Source of the DNA: Candidatus Micrarchaeota archaeon
Lineage (GTDB): Archaea > Micrarchaeota > Micrarchaeia > Anstonellales > Bilamarchaeaceae
Length of the DNA stretch: 64,000 bases
NCBI GenBank assembly: GCA_043821365.1
Contig: JBDRCX010000006.1
Coordinates: 224,988 to 288,987 of the forward strand
Direction: 5' to 3'
Made by a program: the position numbers and the translations under genes. Under the pieces are notes generated by a model, which saw only the letters and a list, made by a program, of their open reading frames with translations, had not been told where the DNA came from and made no database searches. Shown one piece after another: positions 21,130 through 64,000 of this stretch (positions within the stretch are counted from its first letter, which is position 1; the number at the start of each line of letters is the position of its first letter).

Positions 21130-21708
21130 TTAAGGTGATGAACATGCACCATTATTACATTGGCAATTGTATTCTGTTGAAACTACTGCTCCATTAGAAC
21201 AATAAAATTCAATCAATTGGTTTGGTCCGTTACAATAATCTGTTTGGTTAGCTACATCGTTATATGTGGTTCCAGAAGAGTTAAATACAATCCCTCCATC
21301 ACCATCAGTACATGGACCATTACCAGAATTATTGGTGTTCTTACCAAATAACCAGTCAAAAAATCCACCGACTCCTTTGCCTCTAAATAGGTCGCTGTCT
21401 AATCCCAATTTAAATCTCTGTGGTTTTTCTCTTTGTAATCCCTTACCAGTATCAAAAAAATCAACTGACCCAGATTTATAATAATCAAATACTTTTGTTT
21501 TTGGTGTAGATGACCTTGCAATTCCAACCCCTAAATTCATAAGGTTTCCTCCTGTGAAACCAAACATCGCTTTTCCAACGTTATCACAAAACTCATTTGG
21601 CGATCCACCACTACAAATAGTATGGGGATCACTAGGGGGAGGAGCCTGTACGGCTGCAAACACAATTCCACCAAGAACAAAAACCAACAAAACAGTCAAA
21701 ATTCTCAT
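21130..21708 (-). CDS. Secreted protein with one C-terminal six-Cys CxDxDGG module
   Basis: Signal peptide MRILTVLLVFVLGGIVFAAVQA. C-terminal CTDGDGGIVFNSSGTTYNDVANQTDYCNGPNQLIEFYCSNGAVVSTEYNCQCNNGACSSP matches the repeat unit of ORF 58989-60767. Confidence 0.5.
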   Translation of the reverse strand: MRILTVLLVFVLGGIVFAAVQAPPPSDPHTICSGGSPNEFCDNVGKAMFGFTGGNLMNLGVGIARSSTPKTKVFDYYKSGSVDFFDTGKGLQREKPQRFKLGLDSDLFRGKGVGGFFDWLFGKNTNNSGNGPCTDGDGGIVFNSSGTTYNDVANQTDYCNGPNQLIEFYCSNGAVVSTEYNCQCNNGACSSP

Positions 21709-56919: not shown

Positions 56920-57633
56920 ATGTACGGAGTTTCCCCCCAAGCATATGATCGAGCAATTACGGTGTTTAGTCCGGATGGAAGATTATTCCAGGTTGAATAC
57001 GCAAAAGAAGCAGTGAAAAGAGGAGCAACTGCAATAGGTATAACATCAAAGGATGGAGTTGCATTAGTTGCATTCAAATCAATTCATTCTGCGCTAGTTG
57101 TGCCAGAATCACTGAAGAAAGTTTTTGAAATCGATAGTCATATTGTTGTAACAGCGTCAGGGTTAATTGCAGATGCTAGAAGACTTGTTGAAGTTGCACG
57201 TGTTGATTCACAAAGACATAGGATAACTTACAACGAAGCACCAAGTGTTGATTCTATCGCAAGAAGTGCCTGTGATCTTATGCAGGTTTACACCCAATAT
57301 GGTGGGATTAGACCATTTGGAGTTTCTCTTTTGATTGCAGGTGTTGATGATCAAGGACCAAAACTCTTTGAAGCTGAACCAAGTGGTGCTATGACTGCAT
57401 ATACGGCAGACTCCATAGGTGCAAACAAAAAAGAAGTAGATGAGTACCTTGAGTCTAAATATAGTGCAAAAATGACTTTGGACGACTCAATAAAACTATG
57501 TGTTGATGCTTTACGAAAAACACAAGAAGCAAAACTTCTCCAGGAAAACGTTGAAATTTCATATGTGACAACAAAGACGAAGAAATGTGTTTCATTACCA
57601 GATAAAGACGTTGGCAAATATTTGAAACCTTAA
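56920..57633 (+). CDS. psmA: Proteasome alpha subunit
   Basis: YDRAITVFSPDGRLFQVEYA signature. SD gaggtga upstream, and TATA-like aatataaata about 50 nt upstream. Confidence 0.9.
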   Translation: MYGVSPQAYDRAITVFSPDGRLFQVEYAKEAVKRGATAIGITSKDGVALVAFKSIHSALVVPESLKKVFEIDSHIVVTASGLIADARRLVEVARVDSQRHRITYNEAPSVDSIARSACDLMQVYTQYGGIRPFGVSLLIAGVDDQGPKLFEAEPSGAMTAYTADSIGANKKEVDEYLESKYSAKMTLDDSIKLCVDALRKTQEAKLLQENVEISYVTTKTKKCVSLPDKDVGKYLKP

Positions 57634-57645
57634 TTTTTTTCTAAT

Positions 57646-58320
57646 TTATTTTACTACAGTCCCACTATGAACTTCGCCATTAATCGCCTTCTCAACATCA
57701 TCTAAATTTTTCCCACTTACAAAATGCGTTTCAATTTTCGATCTTGCAATAAGTTTACAGGCAAGCAAATCAAATACAAAATTAGTTCCTGCAGTTCTTC
57801 TATCACTTTTCACAGCAAGATCAATAAGCTCATCATAAGTCATTTTATCGAATTTTTTTGCATCCAGATTTTCTTTTGGATTAGAATCATAAATTCCTGC
57901 AGTATTGCTTATATTTATCAATCTCCTCGATCTCAGAGCTTCAGCCAAAAGTACAGAATCAGTATCCGTAGTTACTCCTGGTATGGTTCCCCCCATCACA
58001 ATTACTTTTGCGTCTGCTTCTTTCCGTGCTTTTTTGAAATCTTTGATTGTTTTTGGGTAAGCCATATCTTCAAAAATATCTGCAACTGTTTGGGCATTCT
58101 TCCAGGTGATTTTTATTGCTGCTTCATCACATTCAAATTCGCTTTTACCTTTATCACGCATTTTTCTTGCCACTTTCCTTGCTCCAAATCCGCCACCAAC
58201 AACTATGCCGAATTTGTTCTCATTCCTAGAAATTATCTCTTTTATTCTAAGTACATAATCTCTATCTGTTCCTTTTTCTGTATTTACTAGGCTACCACCC
58301 AAAGATAAGACAATGTGCAT
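57646..58320 (-). CDS. pyrH: UMP kinase, archaeal type
   Basis: MHIVLSLGGSLV, VVGGGFGARK, GTTDTDSVLLA. Confidence 0.85.
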   Translation of the reverse strand: MHIVLSLGGSLVNTEKGTDRDYVLRIKEIISRNENKFGIVVGGGFGARKVARKMRDKGKSEFECDEAAIKITWKNAQTVADIFEDMAYPKTIKDFKKARKEADAKVIVMGGTIPGVTTDTDSVLLAEALRSRRLINISNTAGIYDSNPKENLDAKKFDKMTYDELIDLAVKSDRRTAGTNFVFDLLACKLIARSKIETHFVSGKNLDDVEKAINGEVHSGTVVK

Positions 58321-58326
58321 ATCTAC

Positions 58327-58947
58327 CTATCTTCCTGAGGATTTAAATTTTCTTCTCTTAGTTTTTTTCGAACTATGTTTTTTTCTTATGGGTCTTTTCT
58401 TTTCTGGTTTTTTGATGAGGTTCAAAAATCCAAAAACCACGCATGAAACCAAATACCCTTCAATGAGTAGAAGGGTGGCACTTATTATTATTGCAAGAAC
58501 AGATGCCGGTCTATACTGATTGTTAGTACTTATAGCGCAATCATAGCTTTTTTCTGTCATATAATGCTCACAAAAAGGAGTATTCATATATTCACAAGGA
58601 ACTGGAAGAAAGGGGTCAATCAGTAGCATTAATTCGGTTAACTCTTTATCATTCCAATACCCGCTCATTTCAATTGCTCGTTCTATTGCTAGTTCGAACC
58701 GATGCTTTGTTTGTTCCTCAATAGTAACATCTCCATAGGCTATAGTGCCTGATTCAATTTCATGGCAAAACTTATTATCCATCATTAGTTCTACTGCCAT
58801 TGCATACTCTTTTACATCGCACATATAACTATCCTGCAACGAACCAAATACGTAGAAATCATTCAAAACAAAGACAAATGTTATTAGCATTATTGTTGGT
58901 AAGATGAATTTTCTCAACTCTGATTTTAAAAAATCCATATTTCTCAA
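58327..58947 (-). CDS. Hypothetical membrane protein with Cys-containing ectodomain and highly basic tail
   Basis: N-terminal TM (FILPTIMLITFVFVL), C-terminal TMs, and tail KKPEKKRPIRKKHSSKKTKRRKFKSSGR. Confidence 0.4.
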   Translation of the reverse strand: MRNMDFLKSELRKFILPTIMLITFVFVLNDFYVFGSLQDSYMCDVKEYAMAVELMMDNKFCHEIESGTIAYGDVTIEEQTKHRFELAIERAIEMSGYWNDKELTELMLLIDPFLPVPCEYMNTPFCEHYMTEKSYDCAISTNNQYRPASVLAIIISATLLLIEGYLVSCVVFGFLNLIKKPEKKRPIRKKHSSKKTKRRKFKSSGR

Positions 58948-58988
58948 GTCTCATTAACCATTTAAATTTTTTCCCCTAAGTCTAACAT

Positions 58989-60767
58989 ATGAGATCTTTA
59001 CTGGTTTTGGCGTTAATCGTCTTTTTATTCGGATTTGGATGTTTAATTCCTGGTATGTGCGGGGGAGCTGTTTGTGGAAGTGATTGGCAAACTTATGGTG
59101 ATAAATGCCAAGCAGAAGCAGCAGGTGTTACTGTTCTAAAAGATGGCCAGTGCGGTCAAAAATGTACTGACAGTGATGGTGGAGATAGCCCAATTGTGTT
59201 TGGTACAGCCCAGTACAAAGGACTTTCCTATAATGATTATTGCCAGGGAAGTAAAATAGTGGAATATTCATGTAGAAACAATGAGTTACAAAGCCAAACA
59301 TCTGATTGCCCGAGTGGAACTTGTGAAAATGGAGCGTGTTCTACTGCATCATGTACTGACAGTGATGGTGGTAAAGATCAATATACCAAAGGAACAGCAT
59401 CAGAAGGTACAAATTATACAGATTCTTGCGTTGCATTGAACAAAGTACAAGAATATTATTGTTCTACTAATGGTGTACTTTCTGAAATCATCACATGTTC
59501 ATCAGGCTTTGAATGCTCTGATGGTGCATGTCTTTCATTAACTTGTTCTGATACTGAAACCGGACATGGTGAATATGTTGCAGGAACCGTAACAAAAGGA
59601 AGCATGGATTATACAGACTATTGTATTGATACCACACAAATCAATGAATTCTATTGTAACAACGGAGTGGTTGTTTCTGCCACTCTAACCTGTCCGTCAG
59701 GATATAACTGCGATTCAGGGACATGTGTTAGCGTAGGCTGTTCTGATGATGATGGTGGCTCAAATAAGTATTCAAAAGGAACAACAACAAAAGGAGACAC
59801 AACTTATACTGATTATTGTACGAGTTCAAGTGAAGTAAAAGAGTACTATTGTTCTTGGGGTGACATATATTCAAGTACATTAAGTTGTTCTTCAGGATAT
59901 TCATGTTCTGATGGTGCATGTATTTCAGGTGATTCATGTGATGATTCTGATGGTGGTAAAGACAGATATGAAGAAGGTACCACCACGAAAGGAGAAGATG
60001 AATACACAGACACATGTAAAGATAGCGACACAGTAAAAGAATATTTCTGTGATAATGACGATCTGATTGACTATACAAATCTAGACTGTCCATCTGGTTA
60101 TGAGTGTGACGATGGTGAATGTGTTGTGACTGGTGGAACTCCAACGAGCTGTTCTGATACTGATGGCCAAGATTATGAAACTGTTGGATCTACAAGTGAT
60201 TCAACTGGTGCATCTGGCACAGATAATTGTATCGACGATACTCATGTCAGAGAGTATTTCTGTGATAATAATTTACTAGATTCAGAATCTTATGATTGTA
60301 GTGCAGATTCTGCAGTTTGTGATGGTGGCAGGTGCGTTCCAATATCATGTACTGACACTGATGGTGGAGAAACATACTTTACATTCGGTACAGTGACATT
60401 TAGTTATGATGGTGTAGACACAGATTATGATGACGTTTGTACTGGGCCATTGACATTACGTGAATACTACTGTGATGAGTATGATGTAATGAACTCAACC
60501 CAATCATGTTTATTTGGGTGTTCTGGAGGCGAATGCCAATCAATCTCTATTCCAACTTGTTCTGATACTGACGGTGGGGATATGCCATATACATTTGGTA
60601 CAACAACCTACAGTTATGGTGGCAGCGATACAGATTATGACGACGTTTGTATTAGTCCGGCTACAGTACGTGAATATTACTGTAATGGTTTTATGGTAAT
60701 GAACACCACCCACACATGTATAAATCTGTGTACTGGAGGAAAATGTAATCCTCTCGTAATACCATAA
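58989..60767 (+). CDS. Secreted Cys-rich repeat protein: Kazal-like N-terminal motif plus 8 tandem six-Cys CxDxDGG modules
   Basis: Signal MRSLLVLALIVFLFGFGC. VCGSDWQTYGDKCQAEAAGVTVLKDGQC. Then 8 units of about 62-70 aa: C[TSD]D[ST][DE][GT]G...Y..GT...G..Y.D.C......v.EY.C.......s..C..G..C..G.C. Confidence 0.7.
   Translation: MRSLLVLALIVFLFGFGCLIPGMCGGAVCGSDWQTYGDKCQAEAAGVTVLKDGQCGQKCTDSDGGDSPIVFGTAQYKGLSYNDYCQGSKIVEYSCRNNELQSQTSDCPSGTCENGACSTASCTDSDGGKDQYTKGTASEGTNYTDSCVALNKVQEYYCSTNGVLSEIITCSSGFECSDGACLSLTCSDTETGHGEYVAGTVTKGSMDYTDYCIDTTQINEFYCNNGVVVSATLTCPSGYNCDSGTCVSVGCSDDDGGSNKYSKGTTTKGDTTYTDYCTSSSEVKEYYCSWGDIYSSTLSCSSGYSCSDGACISGDSCDDSDGGKDRYEEGTTTKGEDEYTDTCKDSDTVKEYFCDNDDLIDYTNLDCPSGYECDDGECVVTGGTPTSCSDTDGQDYETVGSTSDSTGASGTDNCIDDTHVREYFCDNNLLDSESYDCSADSAVCDGGRCVPISCTDTDGGETYFTFGTVTFSYDGVDTDYDDVCTGPLTLREYYCDEYDVMNSTQSCLFGCSGGECQSISIPTCSDTDGGDMPYTFGTTTYSYGGSDTDYDDVCISPATVREYYCNGFMVMNTTHTCINLCTGGKCNPLVIP
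59163..60764 (+). repeat. Tandem coding repeat array (8 units, about 190-210 nt each)
   Basis: Units start at successive tgt(a/t)c(t/c)ga(c/t)(a/g)... codons encoding C[TSD]D[STD][DE]. The last two units are the most similar at the DNA level. Confidence 0.75.
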
Positions 60768-60798
60768 CCTTTTATCCACTTTCTTTTATTTTCTATTT

Positions 60799-61350
60799 AT
60801 GACATTACACGACAGTATAGTTGAAATAAACAAAAATCTTTCTTCTAAAGAAGAACAATTGGATAAAATTATGGCGCACAACCGCCAAATAATTCGTTCT
60901 TGTTCAAATGCAATTAAAGCAATGCATTCTGGCGAACTACCAAAAGCAAAAGAATATCTGGCGGAGGCAAAAAAAGGACTTGCAAATGTTCTAGAATGTC
61001 AGACTAATTATCAACACCACATGAACCATATTCTTCAAGAGTATACTGAAGCGTGTGTTGTTTTATCTGCAATCGAATCAAAAACAATTCCTGGACAAAA
61101 AGAATTAGGTGTTCCTGATCTTCCATATTTGCTTGGTCTATTGGATACTGTTGGCGAATTAAAAAGAGAGATGTATGAATGTTTACGACAGAAAAACAAA
61201 AAAGAGGCAGAAGAATATTTCAAGCTCATGGAACAAATTTATGATGAACTTCTTTGTCTTAGGTTTTCAAATGCCGTACTTCCTGAGTTCAGACATAAAC
61301 AGGACTCTGCCAGACATCAGATAGAACAGGCCAGGGGAGAGTTAATATAG
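60799..61350 (+). CDS. Translin-family protein (archaeal translin-like nucleic-acid-binding protein)
   Basis: All-helical, 183 aa. LPYLLGLLDTVGELKRE matches the translin/TRAX motif dYllGl.DltGEl.R. Confidence 0.6.
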   Translation: MTLHDSIVEINKNLSSKEEQLDKIMAHNRQIIRSCSNAIKAMHSGELPKAKEYLAEAKKGLANVLECQTNYQHHMNHILQEYTEACVVLSAIESKTIPGQKELGVPDLPYLLGLLDTVGELKREMYECLRQKNKKEAEEYFKLMEQIYDELLCLRFSNAVLPEFRHKQDSARHQIEQARGELI

Positions 61351-61407
61351 TTATAGTTTATATCTAAAAGCGGTAGGTTTAAATAATCCTCAAATCAATT
61401 AATTCTT

Positions 61408-62244
61408 ATGTCCAGTCCGGCGGAACTGTATCTGCATTCCTTATCTATAGCATTTGATATGGTTAAAAATATCCTTGCCACCGTCCGTGCTGATCTTGGT
61501 AGGCTTTATCTTGCTGTTGATGCTGGGTGCGGTCCTGGAAATTATATTAAACCGCTTTTATCAATTATGAGTCCTGGAGGTAAAGTTGTTGCTATTGATT
61601 CATCACAAGAAATGCTTGATTTATTAAGACAAAAACAATCTCCTTCGAACTTAAAAAAACTATTAATCGCAAATGCCAAGATAGAAGAAATGGATGGTCT
61701 GGTTCATGATGCAGATCTTGTTCTTTGCGCATCTTCTCTTCAGTTTACTGATGTTCCTACTGCATTTAATGCAATATACGCATCTCTTGCTCACCATGGC
61801 GTTCTTGTTTTTAGTATGCCCATGGGTTTAGCAGGAATCTTAGAAGAAAATCCAGAAGGTGCATATGCTGCTTTTCAGGAAGTTTTCCATTACAATCTAA
61901 AGGAAGAAGTTTCAAAAAGAGCACCTGGATATTCATTGGCTAATGTTGCGGTGATGCGTCCAGATAGGACAATCACCCAATTCCTTACACCATGTTCTGA
62001 TGCTGGGTTTGTTTTTACTGCAAGTTATGTTGCATTACAGATAGTTCCCGCATCAAAATTAGGTGTTCATCTTTCTGTTCCATGGAGGGTTGATCGTTTT
62101 ATTCCTGGTCTTGAGCACAAAATACAACAAGAATGCATGCGTCGTGCAATTGACAAATCACTTAATCACATGAAGTTTGATAAAAATTTTCCATTTAAAA
62201 GAGAGATCGGCTATGTGGTTGCTAAAAAAGGTCTAGTTAGATAA
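61408..62244 (+). CDS. Class I SAM-dependent methyltransferase
   Basis: Motif I LAVDAGCGPGNY, post-I VVAIDSS, and DLVLCASSLQF. Confidence 0.65.
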   Translation: MSSPAELYLHSLSIAFDMVKNILATVRADLGRLYLAVDAGCGPGNYIKPLLSIMSPGGKVVAIDSSQEMLDLLRQKQSPSNLKKLLIANAKIEEMDGLVHDADLVLCASSLQFTDVPTAFNAIYASLAHHGVLVFSMPMGLAGILEENPEGAYAAFQEVFHYNLKEEVSKRAPGYSLANVAVMRPDRTITQFLTPCSDAGFVFTASYVALQIVPASKLGVHLSVPWRVDRFIPGLEHKIQQECMRRAIDKSLNHMKFDKNFPFKREIGYVVAKKGLVR

Positions 62245-63100
62245 TCTCAGTTACTAATCTTCTAAATTCATCTGGAGCTTCCAAAGCAGGAAAATGTCCT
62301 GTTCTATCAATTGTTCTAAGAACAACCTCAGAGTCATTCCCCATGGTCTCAAATATTCTTGTTGCTGCAATGTTATTATCTATAAAAAGATCATGATGTC
62401 CACTGATAACAAGTACCTTTTCAGGCATCCATATTTTCCCCGCAATAAGTATATTCTCTAATTGTCTTCCTTCACTACACATGGCGTAAAATTCCATTAA
62501 TGTTGTTCGTTTATCATGAGTTTTTGTTTCTCTTAAAAATCTTGCAAATTCTCTTTTTACTTGTTCTTCTGCTCCCAAATGCCTGAAAAGAAAAGGAGAT
62601 GCTAATTGGAAAGCAGTTATGGTAAATCCCATATTTCTATATGGTAATTTACCATCTTCTATTGCATTGACAATTCTATTGGCACGCCATCGTGTGAATG
62701 CAGATCCAAGTCTAATAAGTTTATCATCTTTTGGAAAACTTTCTCTTGGATCAGATAATGCGGGGGTTACGAATACAACTGCCTTTGGTCTATGTTGTTC
62801 ATATCCTGGTTCTCTAACAAGATTAAGGTATGCGATTGCTGCAAGGCCACCCATACTATGCACCACTAAACAAGGACTTTCTATATTGCGAACTTTCAAT
62901 TCATCTAAAAGTTCTCTTGCCAATGTTCTGAAATAACCTGGAACATATCCCTGTCTATCAAACCTAAAAAATCCAAAACCACTTTCACATAACGGTTCAA
63001 GAGCGTTCCAGTCTTTCTTTTTACAAGCCCAACCATTAATAGTAACTATTGTTGTTTTTTGTTCTCTGGCTGGTCGATGGTCTATGTTAGTTACTAACAT
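62237..63100 (-). CDS. Alpha/beta-fold hydrolase
   Basis: Nucleophile elbow LVVHSMGGLAAI, and C-terminal DRTGHFPALEAPDEF (catalytic His region). Confidence 0.65.
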   Translation of the reverse strand: MLVTNIDHRPAREQKTTIVTINGWACKKKDWNALEPLCESGFGFFRFDRQGYVPGYFRTLARELLDELKVRNIESPCLVVHSMGGLAAIAYLNLVREPGYEQHRPKAVVFVTPALSDPRESFPKDDKLIRLGSAFTRWRANRIVNAIEDGKLPYRNMGFTITAFQLASPFLFRHLGAEEQVKREFARFLRETKTHDKRTTLMEFYAMCSEGRQLENILIAGKIWMPEKVLVISGHHDLFIDNNIAATRIFETMGNDSEVVLRTIDRTGHFPALEAPDEFRRLVTEII

Positions 63101-63126
63101 GTTATAATTTGAGTTAGATTGAGTAT

Positions 63127-64000
63127 TTAAATATTCTCATTTATTGTTTTTTCTAGCTCTAGTCTACGAAGTTCTAATCTTTCTTTTGATTTGTATTCCA
63201 TGGTCAGTCTAATTATTGGTTCTGTGCCTGATGCTCTTATTAGAAACCACCCATCTTCTTCGTCTACTCTCACTCCATCATCCTGTCTTATCTTTCCTTC
63301 CATTCGCAATTCAGTCACTATTTTTCTTAATCTTTCCATTGCTTTGTGTTTGTTGTTAGTTTTGTATTTTCCTCTGAAAATTGGATTTTGTTTATACTTT
63401 TTCTTCAATATTGAAAATTTGTCATTAGTTGCAAATATCTCTGCAAATTTAGCCACTGCAAGTACTGCATCTGGAACATGCACTCCTTTTTTGTAAATAT
63501 ATTCGCCACAAGGTTCTCCACCAAACAATGCGCCTTCTCCTTCAAGAACATCTCCAACATATGTACTTCCAACTGGGGTTATGTATATTCTCCCTCCTGC
63601 GTTCTCTACAACTTCTCTTATTACAAGTGATGATTCAACAGTCGTAACTATTTTTTTATTATTGTTTTTTGTAATCTCATGCTCTATCATCATTGCAAGT
63701 TGCACATCAAATGGAAGAATCTCCCCTTTTTCATCTATTATAACGCATCTATCCCCATCTCCATCATGCGCTATAGCAAAATCAGCTTCAATTTCCCTTA
63801 CAAACTTTGGTAAATATGAAATGTTTTCCTCAGATGGCTCTGATTGGCGATTAAAGCCATCAGTTGATGAATTAACACTAATAACTTCACATCCAAGATC
63901 TGTTAAAAGATAAGGAGTTATTGATGCTGCAGCACCGTTACAGTCAACAACAATTTTTGGTTTTTTTCGTGAAATTTCTATACTATCAACCATTTCAATT
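63127..64000 (-). CDS. Phosphoglucosamine/phosphomannomutase-family (alpha-D-phosphohexomutase), N-terminus beyond window edge
   Basis: AIAHDGDGDRC metal-binding loop, GGEPCGE sugar loop, RASGTEPIIRL phosphate loop. The reading frame stays open to the window end. Confidence 0.8.
   Translation of the reverse strand, partial: IEMVDSIEISRKKPKIVVDCNGAAASITPYLLTDLGCEVISVNSSTDGFNRQSEPSEENISYLPKFVREIEADFAIAHDGDGDRCVIIDEKGEILPFDVQLAMMIEHEITKNNNKKIVTTVESSLVIREVVENAGGRIYITPVGSTYVGDVLEGEGALFGGEPCGEYIYKKGVHVPDAVLAVAKFAEIFATNDKFSILKKKYKQNPIFRGKYKTNNKHKAMERLRKIVTELRMEGKIRQDDGVRVDEEDGWFLIRASGTEPIIRLTMEYKSKERLELRRLELEKTINENI

Follow-up and report, generated by a model that had tools for sequence, protein, structure and literature searches.

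What is a protein that consists for the most part of one small cysteine-rich unit, repeated eight times, and what might it do at the surface of an archaeal cell? The question is raised by a gene at 58989..60767 (+) of a 64,000-nucleotide stretch of DNA from a Candidatus Micrarchaeota archaeon (GenBank assembly GCA_043821365.1, contig JBDRCX010000006.1, positions 224,988 to 288,987 of the forward strand), the whole of which is here called the window. According to the list of open reading frames (ORFs) the gene is complete, with 592 codons and a stop, and its product has 553 homologs at E≤1e-3. The mature protein has an isoelectric point of 4.05 and a cysteine content of 9.2%. We find the module to be a disulfide-rich repeat domain, enriched in the DPANN archaea, for which there is neither a curated entry nor a structural match, and its architecture, conservation, confident fold, absence from curated libraries and phyletic spread are established here. 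As to its role, we give roughly even odds (about 0.5) to the protein being a lipid-anchored, disulfide-locked, probably Ca2+-loaded and protease-resistant surface rod for recognition or adhesion.

Eight copies of an uncurated module

From residue 59 to the C-terminus the protein is made up of eight consecutive units of 63–71 residues with exactly six cysteines each, starting at residues 59, 122, 186, 251, 317, 388, 454 and 524. The cysteines, numbered C1 to C6 within a unit, are spaced C-x24-29-C-x9-10-C-x11-12-C-x3-6-C-x4-C, and the linkers from C6 to the C1 of the next unit are 4–9 residues long. The original prediction, made from the letters of the DNA, had described eight tandem six-cysteine modules in a 592-residue protein, and both the ORF and the cysteine counts agree with it; the span that it gave, 59163..60764, runs exactly from the first cysteine codon of unit 1 to the last sense codon.

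The units, all on the plus strand, were scored with a hidden Markov model (HMM) of the unit, and the independent E-value (iE) is given for each. Module 1 (residues 59–121, 59163..59351, iE 2.8e-23) is orthologous to the first unit of P0002, a protein discussed below, with 56% identity; module 2 (residues 122–185, 59352..59543, iE 2.4e-25) is 66% identical to the second unit of P0002 and module 5 (residues 317–387, 59937..60149, iE 7.7e-25), which is followed by the longest linker (9 residues), is 74% identical to the fifth. Module 3 (residues 186–250, 59544..59738, iE 2.2e-27) starts with the motif CSDTETG, and module 4 (residues 251–316, 59739..59936, iE 5.7e-26) is the unit that was modelled singly. 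Module 6 (residues 388–453, 60150..60347, iE 1.7e-22) is the most divergent, with CSDTDGQ, a C4-x6-C5 spacing and 29–38% identity to the other units. The C-terminal subtype, with C4-x3-C5, is formed by module 7 (residues 454–523, 60348..60557, iE 1.1e-22) and module 8 (residues 524–592, 60558..60764, iE 1.2e-24). All eight units have the six cysteines, D3, D25 and E35, and the exceptions at other conserved positions are a glutamate for D5 in unit 3 and a glutamine for G7 in unit 6.

The HMM was trained on the window's own eight units, so that their scores of 1e-22 to 1e-27 are circular, and independent support comes instead from an extra copy of the unit, from shuffled sequences and from a first harvest of 1,500 homologous units (227 proteins), 1,456 of which have all six cysteines. 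The extra copy, at 21133..21312 (−), had already been pointed out; the HMM finds it with an iE of 1.3e-11 and finds no further copies in the window. It makes up the C-terminal 60 residues of a second gene product of 192 residues (21130..21708 (−), from the ORF list), behind a signal peptide and an orphan N-terminal region of ~120 residues, and no homologs of the whole 192-residue protein were found in a word-index search. The cysteine pattern proposed earlier fits, taken literally, only two of the eight units (unit 3 reads DTETG, unit 6 DGQ, and the spacing deviates in units 1, 7 and 8). In a slightly relaxed form it fits seven of the eight, and not one match was seen among 20,000 shuffles that preserve the composition of the mature protein. 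The split in C4–C5 spacing between the first six units and the last two was also broadly right: units 7 and 8 have C-x3-C, but unit 1 has C-x4-C and unit 6 has C-x6-C without the 'SG'.

Within the protein the units are 29–58% identical to one another at the amino acid level and 44–70% at the nucleotide level. Units 7 and 8 are the most similar pair, as had been noted (58% and 70%, respectively), and units 2 and 4 come next, with 66% nucleotide identity. Tandem Repeats Finder detected no array in the DNA, which means that the repeat is visible at the protein level only.

We defined the module family by an alignment (A1) with the six cysteines in register, D3, D5, G14, D25-x-C, E35-[YF]-[YFS]-C and a terminal G-x-C. 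A set of 767 units was harvested from 120 homologous proteins; 751 of these have exactly six cysteines, and C1 to C6 are essentially invariant. The other conserved positions are D3 (92%), D5 (95%), G7 (87%), G14 (95%), D25 (100%), E35 (99%), Y36 (79%), Y37 (69%) and G59 (93%), and the near-invariant residues of a unit can be written as C1, D3, D5, G7, G14, D25, C2, E35-Y-Y-C3, C4, C5, G and C6.

Whole-protein scans gave no match to the module in Pfam or NCBIfam, and when 147 diverse units were scanned singly only scattered, sub-threshold matches to generic cysteine-rich families appeared, among them ADAMTS_CR_2 in 15 of the 147 (best E 0.004). Among the PDB sequences the module was matched neither by the unit profile nor by the whole protein; a factor H sushi domain came up with E 0.086 and was judged a chance match. 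No description of the module was found in the literature searched (DPANN together with cysteine-rich surface proteins, and Kazal with Micrarchaeota or archaea). The 'cysteine-rich repeats' of one preprint (bioRxiv 10.64898/2026.06.07.730663) have a different cysteine spacing and are not this module.

An AlphaFold2 prediction of unit 4, made with the 147-unit alignment, has a mean predicted local distance difference test score (pLDDT) of 95.6 and presents a meander that is all beta, with seven short strands and a short N-terminal bridge. The model of the full-length protein is confident for all eight units (mean pLDDT 90.6), and its predicted template modelling score of only 0.40 is what one would expect of loosely coupled beads on a string. 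When the single unit was searched with Foldseek, neither the PDB nor a viral library gave a match at E≤0.001. The original prediction had not recognised the module as a named domain, and with no match in Pfam, NCBIfam or the PDB sequences and no significant structural neighbour this still holds. With the full-length model Foldseek returned beta-propellers (DDB1, IFT-A), which had template modelling (TM) scores of ~0.08 and root-mean-square deviations of 30–40 Å and were rejected as artefacts of repeated beta-hairpins.

The top Foldseek neighbours of the single unit, in both libraries, were chitin-binding type-2 domains of the CBM14 family (E 0.4–3.4, TM 0.37–0.43), including Blo t 12 (E 0.4), Avr4 (TM 0.39) and baculovirus chitin-binding type-2 proteins. 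This resemblance of a predicted structure is a weak lead and not evidence of membership. It does suggest another role, in which the modules would be small lectin-like or CBM-like domains (compare CBM14 and hevein), possibly working with Ca2+, and the array a multivalent lectin for glycans of the surface layer (S-layer) or envelope, either on the host or on the cell that bears it. Like the CBM14 or peritrophin-A domains, which often stand in tandem, the module is a six-cysteine extracellular beta domain of ~65 residues; it also has conserved aromatic residues (Y36, Y37) and invariant carboxylates, and the LamG, beta-helix and BNR domains that co-occur with it in other proteins are typical of glycan-active surface proteins. 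That the same family came out on top in two independent libraries speaks for the idea as well, but the matches are not significant (E≥0.4, TM ~0.4), the cysteine spacing is unlike that of CBM14 and not one of the 147 units matches the Pfam CBM_14 model. We know of no invariant acidic quartet in CBM14. A lectin array seems unlikely to us as a separate explanation, and it overlaps with the favoured reading of a surface protein that binds a partner.

Predicted disulfide pairs and a probable acidic cluster

With genome loci added, a second harvest gave 1,760 units, 1,715 of them with all six cysteines. Most of the apparent losses of a single cysteine are alignment artefacts, the unit still having six in total. 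The informative cases are the paired losses: three units, each from a different protein, lack both C4 and C6, and one unit lacks both C2 and C5. These point to the pairs C4–C6 and C2–C5 and by elimination to C1–C3, so that each module would be held by three disulfides, C1–C3, C2–C5 and C4–C6.

Mean-field coevolution, computed over all 1,760 units, gave the couplings 15–24, 26–34 and 42–47, which agree with the predicted hairpins, and a coupling 26–55, which flanks C27 and C56. Further couplings were 2–15, 4–15, 2–26 and 8–37. The couplings 2–15, 4–15, 2–26 and 26–34 would place the C-x-D-S-D segment against the strand formed by residues 14–17 and beside residue 26, which brings D3 and D5 near D25 and E35. 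It appears that these four carboxylates cluster near the N-terminal end of each module.

Carboxylates clustered N-terminally in small disulfide-rich extracellular modules are seen in the Ca2+-binding cbEGF and LDL-A domains. These are modules of 40–65 residues with three disulfides, arranged head to tail with short linkers, and in cbEGF an N-terminal cluster of invariant aspartate and glutamate residues binds Ca2+ and stiffens the array. By the invariance of the four carboxylates and the couplings between their neighbours we infer that the modules described here bind Ca2+ as well, and the linkers of 4–9 residues are compatible with Ca2+-stiffened rods. The likeness is one of kind, a tandem extracellular module with three putative disulfides, short linkers and an acidic cluster. 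There is no sequence or structural homology to cbEGF or LDL-A, the cysteine spacing and the predicted connectivity differ, and the module is a larger, all-beta meander; in the Pfam scans Ldl_recept_a was sub-threshold in 2 of the 147 units and EGF_CA matched none. The acidic starts of the units had been compared with dockerin-like loops, a suggestion that finds no support, as no dockerin or EF-hand model of Pfam matched even at E≤10. Unlike the 12-residue DxDxDG loop of these families, the motif of the module is C-x-D-[ST]-D-G-G, with a cysteine replacing the first aspartate.

One further protein may be mentioned with regard to metals. At a Woesearchaeota locus (L028:2779-6534) a 1,252-residue surface protein carries one six-cysteine unit together with MopE-type putative metal-binding motifs (PF11617), a combination that hints at the mosaic proteins being metal-associated.

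The N-terminal end: a probable lipobox and a degenerate Kazal-type domain

The first 58 residues hold two features, a putative lipobox and a Kazal-type domain, neither of which was part of the original prediction. Residues 1–17 form the sole hydrophobic stretch of the protein, and hydrophobicity, an alignment of 71 family sequences (A4) and a regular expression applied to the homologs together indicate a signal peptide at 58989..59042 (+) with a lipobox-like end (MRSLLVLALIVFLFGFG/C18) and Cys18 as the predicted site of lipid attachment. Export, which had been assumed earlier, is very probable, since hydrophobic sequence is confined to this N-terminal signal and the lipobox cysteine behind it is conserved. 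Cys18 stands in the context FGFG/C, and G17 and C18 are nearly invariant in alignment A4. A strict expression for a signal followed by a lipobox is matched by at least 125 of the 221 homologs with complete N-termini, their signals ending mostly in FGC, SGC, AGC or LGC; P0073, one of the homologs, has a weak match to LPAM_1. Measured against [LVI][ASTVI][GAS]C, the F-G-F-G-C of the window has a fitting glycine at −1, and its residues at −2 and −3 are atypical.

In archaea, AliA and AliB lipidate lipobox proteins with thioether-linked archaeol, and AliA, a lipoprotein lipidation enzyme, has been reported in DPANN (PMC12462473). With the conserved G17 and C18, the matches to the lipobox expression and the occurrence of AliA in DPANN, lipid anchoring is a reasonable assumption, and the repeat protein is probably an archaeal lipoprotein with the lipid on Cys18. 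It resembles the AliA and AliB substrates of Haloferax volcanii in having a charged n-region, a hydrophobic h-region and a family-conserved junction of a small residue and a cysteine. It differs from them in the atypical −3 and −2 positions, and for Micrarchaeota lipidation is a prediction.

Between the lipobox and the array, at residues 24–55 (59058..59153 (+), CGGAVCGSDWQTYGDKCQAEAAGVTVLKDGQC), lies a degenerate Kazal-type domain, recognised with a family profile and the AlphaFold2 model. Taken alone, the window copy is sub-threshold in Pfam (Kazal_2, E=0.017, 15.6 bits with a cutoff of 22.8; Kazal_1, 14.9 bits with a cutoff of 21), and its best match among the PDB sequences is leech-derived tryptase inhibitor (E=0.015). 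Among the homologs, P0015 scores 31 bits and P0006 24.8 bits, above the Pfam Kazal cutoff. The profile (A3), in which the window copy heads an alignment of 46 N-terminal domains of the family, matches the solved Kazal domains of agrin (9.8e-35), RECK (5.5e-19), ovomucoid (5.3e-16) and leech-derived tryptase inhibitor (3.7e-15), and also those of rhodniin and follistatin, so that at the family level the sequence homology to Kazal is unambiguous. Residues 24–55 share the core VCGSDxxTYxxxCxAxxAG...G.C with the Kazal domains (PF00050/PF07648) of the ovomucoid third domain, leech-derived tryptase inhibitor, agrin and follistatin, and the predicted order of strand 28–30, helix 39–44 and strand 49–52 in the full-length model fits the Kazal layout.

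In other respects the domain departs from a classical Kazal inhibitor. The window copy has only four cysteines (24, 29, 40 and 55), the C1 and C5 positions not being cysteines, which removes the C1–C5 disulfide. Its homologs mostly have four cysteines too, and a minority have all six. The canonical C2-x7-C3 loop, with P1 at C2+2, is shortened to C2-x4-C3 (C-G-G-A-V-C) in the window and its closest relatives, and the x7 is kept in more distant homologs. The domain is moreover fused to a lipobox and eight unrelated modules. We found no description of archaeal Kazal proteins in the literature searched (Kazal with Micrarchaeota; Kazal with archaea and lipoprotein), nor of Kazal or Kunitz domains fused to lipoproteins in archaea.

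Could the protein then be a shield against proteases? The Kazal domain, and in some relatives a Kunitz domain, would inhibit secreted serine proteases of hosts or neighbours, and the modules would be a resistant spacer or a new class of tight-binding inhibitor, comparable to multidomain animal inhibitors. The family homology to ovomucoid, leech-derived tryptase inhibitor and agrin is bona fide, and the domain is present in ~113 of the 221 homologs. Some of them have a canonical six-cysteine Kazal with a 'CTLEY' reactive site, which we take to resemble that of the turkey ovomucoid third domain. In P0073 an N-terminal Kazal domain and six-cysteine units are joined by a Kunitz/BPTI domain (47 bits) at the C-terminus, and because of the Kazal domain several homologs are named Kazal-type serine protease inhibitors in the NCBI annotation. 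Many relatives hold a canonical protease-inhibitor Kazal. The window copy, however, has four cysteines, is below the Pfam cutoff and through its C2-x4-C3 loop lacks most of the canonical reactive-site loop (the P1–P3' part), which makes classical inhibition by this protein doubtful. Many close homologs (P0007, P0009, P0011-13, P0019 and P0020) have no Kazal domain and yet retain the lipobox and the array, a Kazal next to the membrane would be poorly placed to intercept proteases, and in other lineages no inhibitor domain accompanies the module. Protease shielding as the main role is for these reasons rather improbable in our judgement.

Distribution, evolution and possible role of the array

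An exhaustive profile search of 1.84 billion representative proteins gave 11,338 matches at E≤1e-3, and the stricter limits of E≤1e-10 and E≤1e-30 left 4,100 and 764 of them; the longest array has 28 units, in a protein of 3,760 residues. The GTDB species genomes were scanned with a back-translated DNA pattern, which gave at least 117 loci. The counts given here refer to the matches listed, 115 of 117 being confirmed by the unit HMM, and the taxa follow the labels of the genomes. About 66 loci are labelled Micrarchaeota, Micrarchaeia, Bilamarchaeum or Anstonellales, followed by Woesearchaeota (14), Pacearchaeota (4), Nanoarchaeota (3), Aenigmatarchaeota (2), Iainarchaeum (2) and unclassified archaea (15). 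Three confirmed loci are labelled uncultured Methanosarcinales, and bacterial labels are found on three loci (Patescibacteria/Peribacteria), on one (Phycisphaerae) and on two short contigs. The module is also present in an Altiarchaeota protein. The two short contigs, binned as Gammaproteobacteria and labelled Chromatiaceae (L055, 2.5 kb) and Methylococcales (L092, 6.2 kb), carry four-unit arrays of the Micrarchaeota type and are probably mis-binned archaeal contigs.

In Micrarchaeota a lipobox is typically combined with 4–11 units, with or without a Kazal domain. P0048, a further family member with 677 residues and 9 units, is listed with a contig of 798 kb, as is the window protein itself (P0001), and the equal length suggests that the two share one contig. 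A genome may hold several paralogous loci, for instance four in binchicken_co27_231 among the matches listed. In other lineages, one to three units stand at varying positions in large signal-peptide proteins, together with Sortilin/BNR, PKD, beta-helix/NosD, MopE motif, fn3, CarboxypepD_reg, PEGA and LamG domains. The varied positions and partners imply that the module is a mobile extracellular building block.

The part of the window from 56920 to 63993 has the same gene order as a contig of Ca. Bilamarchaeum dharawalense LFW-283_2 (CABMJJ010000009.1, locus L118): proteasome alpha, AA_kinase, a small unknown membrane protein, the repeat gene, a translin-like gene, a methyltransferase, a hydrolase and PGM. 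Ca. Bilamarchaeum dharawalense is a Micrarchaeota, so this synteny places the window in a related, Bilamarchaeaceae-like Micrarchaeota genome, in line with the earlier expectation of a DPANN organism. Its repeat protein, P0002, is 52% identical to the window protein and has 10 units where the window has 8. Units 1–5 are 55–74% identical to their positional counterparts in P0002, as compared to 29–58% for pairs within the protein. Such conservation position by position implies that the array is ancient and that each unit is individually constrained. The last unit of P0002 is 52% identical to unit 8 and 43% to unit 7; the second-to-last (55% vs 54%) does not discriminate between the two. With 30% divergence in their DNA, and an ortholog whose last unit clearly matches unit 8, the recent duplication that had been suggested for units 7 and 8 does not stand. 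From these comparisons it appears that the copy number changes through insertion in the distal half of the array.

Around the gene, a TATA-box-like sequence, ATTTAAAT, at 58960..58967 (+) is a putative archaeal promoter, read directly from the sequence. It lies ~25 nucleotides upstream of the ATG, which suggests that the transcript is probably leaderless. Beyond the stop codon a T-rich tract at 60770..60799 (+) is probably an archaeal oligo-T terminator. A gene for a 206-residue membrane protein (58327-58947 (−)) is transcribed divergently from the repeat gene and has no Pfam match; at the same position in Bilamarchaeum is a 225-residue protein, likewise without a Pfam match. The AA_kinase gene, which is UMP-kinase-like, is close upstream of the array gene, with one small ORF between them in the window and in Bilamarchaeum and directly adjacent in the contigs of P0009, a more distant homolog (L119/L120). 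This proximity probably reflects the conserved order of housekeeping genes and not an operon.

The conservation of the array position by position, its presence in most of the Micrarchaeota genomes sampled and a putatively lipid-anchored, rod-like form would also suit a structural strut, that is, a spacer of the pseudo-periplasm joining the membrane to the S-layer without any specific external ligand. The S-layer of Micrarchaeota is built from a different, cysteine-poor protein, the PF05123-type SLP_Mh of Ca. Micrarchaeum harzensis (bioRxiv 10.1101/2021.04.28.441871), a further point in favour of this idea. The repeat protein itself was rejected as an S-layer protein of that type, having no S-layer match in Pfam and 9.2% cysteine. 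A strut of fixed length, however, does not go well with copy numbers of 4–11 among homologs and of 8 and 10 in syntenic orthologs, nor with several divergent paralogs per genome or with the same module in many kinds of mosaic proteins, and we consider it the least likely of the alternatives.

The surface rod that we favour would be formed as follows. After export and processing of the signal peptide, the lipid on Cys18 would tether the protein at the outer face of the membrane, with the Kazal-like domain (residues 24–55) next to the membrane and the eight beta-rich modules of ~65 residues projecting outward as beads on a string. Three disulfides would lock each module. D3, D5, D25 and E35 may, in the manner known from cbEGF, LDL-A and cadherin arrays, bind Ca2+ and stiffen both the module and its junction to the preceding one. 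The variable hairpin loops would then engage a partner, which may be a glycan or a protein and may belong to another cell or to the cell's own envelope. Judged from the sequence, an adhesin role, which the original prediction had also proposed, is plausible.

Several points weigh against this reading. The Pfam scans of the protein and of the 147 units matched no Ca2+-binding model (EF-hand, dockerin, cbEGF/EGF_CA or TSP3). The suggested disulfide pairs and carboxylate cluster are derived from comparative evidence, not from the coordinates of a model, and for the C2–C5 pair this consists of one co-loss case and one coupling. The G-F-G-C of the window departs from the canonical L-[ASTVI]-[GAS]-C of a lipobox, and the Kazal domain in about half of the homologs, with the one Kunitz case, points to a protease-related role over adhesion. 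The neighbouring genes, which are housekeeping genes in the window and in the Bilamarchaeum locus, give no clue to function. Finally, the module occurs in records labelled Methanosarcinales and Phycisphaerae and is thus not specific to episymbionts.

Going further, it is conceivable that the module is a Ca2+-dependent cell-surface recognition domain characteristic of DPANN and reaching some bacteria of the Candidate Phyla Radiation. The lipid-anchored arrays would in that case be host-attachment or sensing filaments of Micrarchaeota, a prokaryotic counterpart of cadherin- and cbEGF-type arrays, with Kazal and Kunitz caps that shield the contact zone from proteases. This wider picture is speculative, and we hold it to be a good deal less probable than the surface rod as such.

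If the modules are inert spacers, the result is a useful but ordinary annotation. In any case, a compact and confidently foldable domain that is present in ~11,000 representative proteins has neither a Pfam or NCBIfam model nor a solved structural relative, and a new curated entry could be made for the family. It also provides a record of predicted archaeal lipoproteins with fused Kazal and Kunitz inhibitor domains. Little is known of how DPANN archaea attach to their hosts, and the majority of their surface proteins bear the annotation 'hypothetical'; the family offers a concrete set of surface proteins, several per Micrarchaeota genome, in which host attachment, Ca2+ dependence and protease resistance may be studied.

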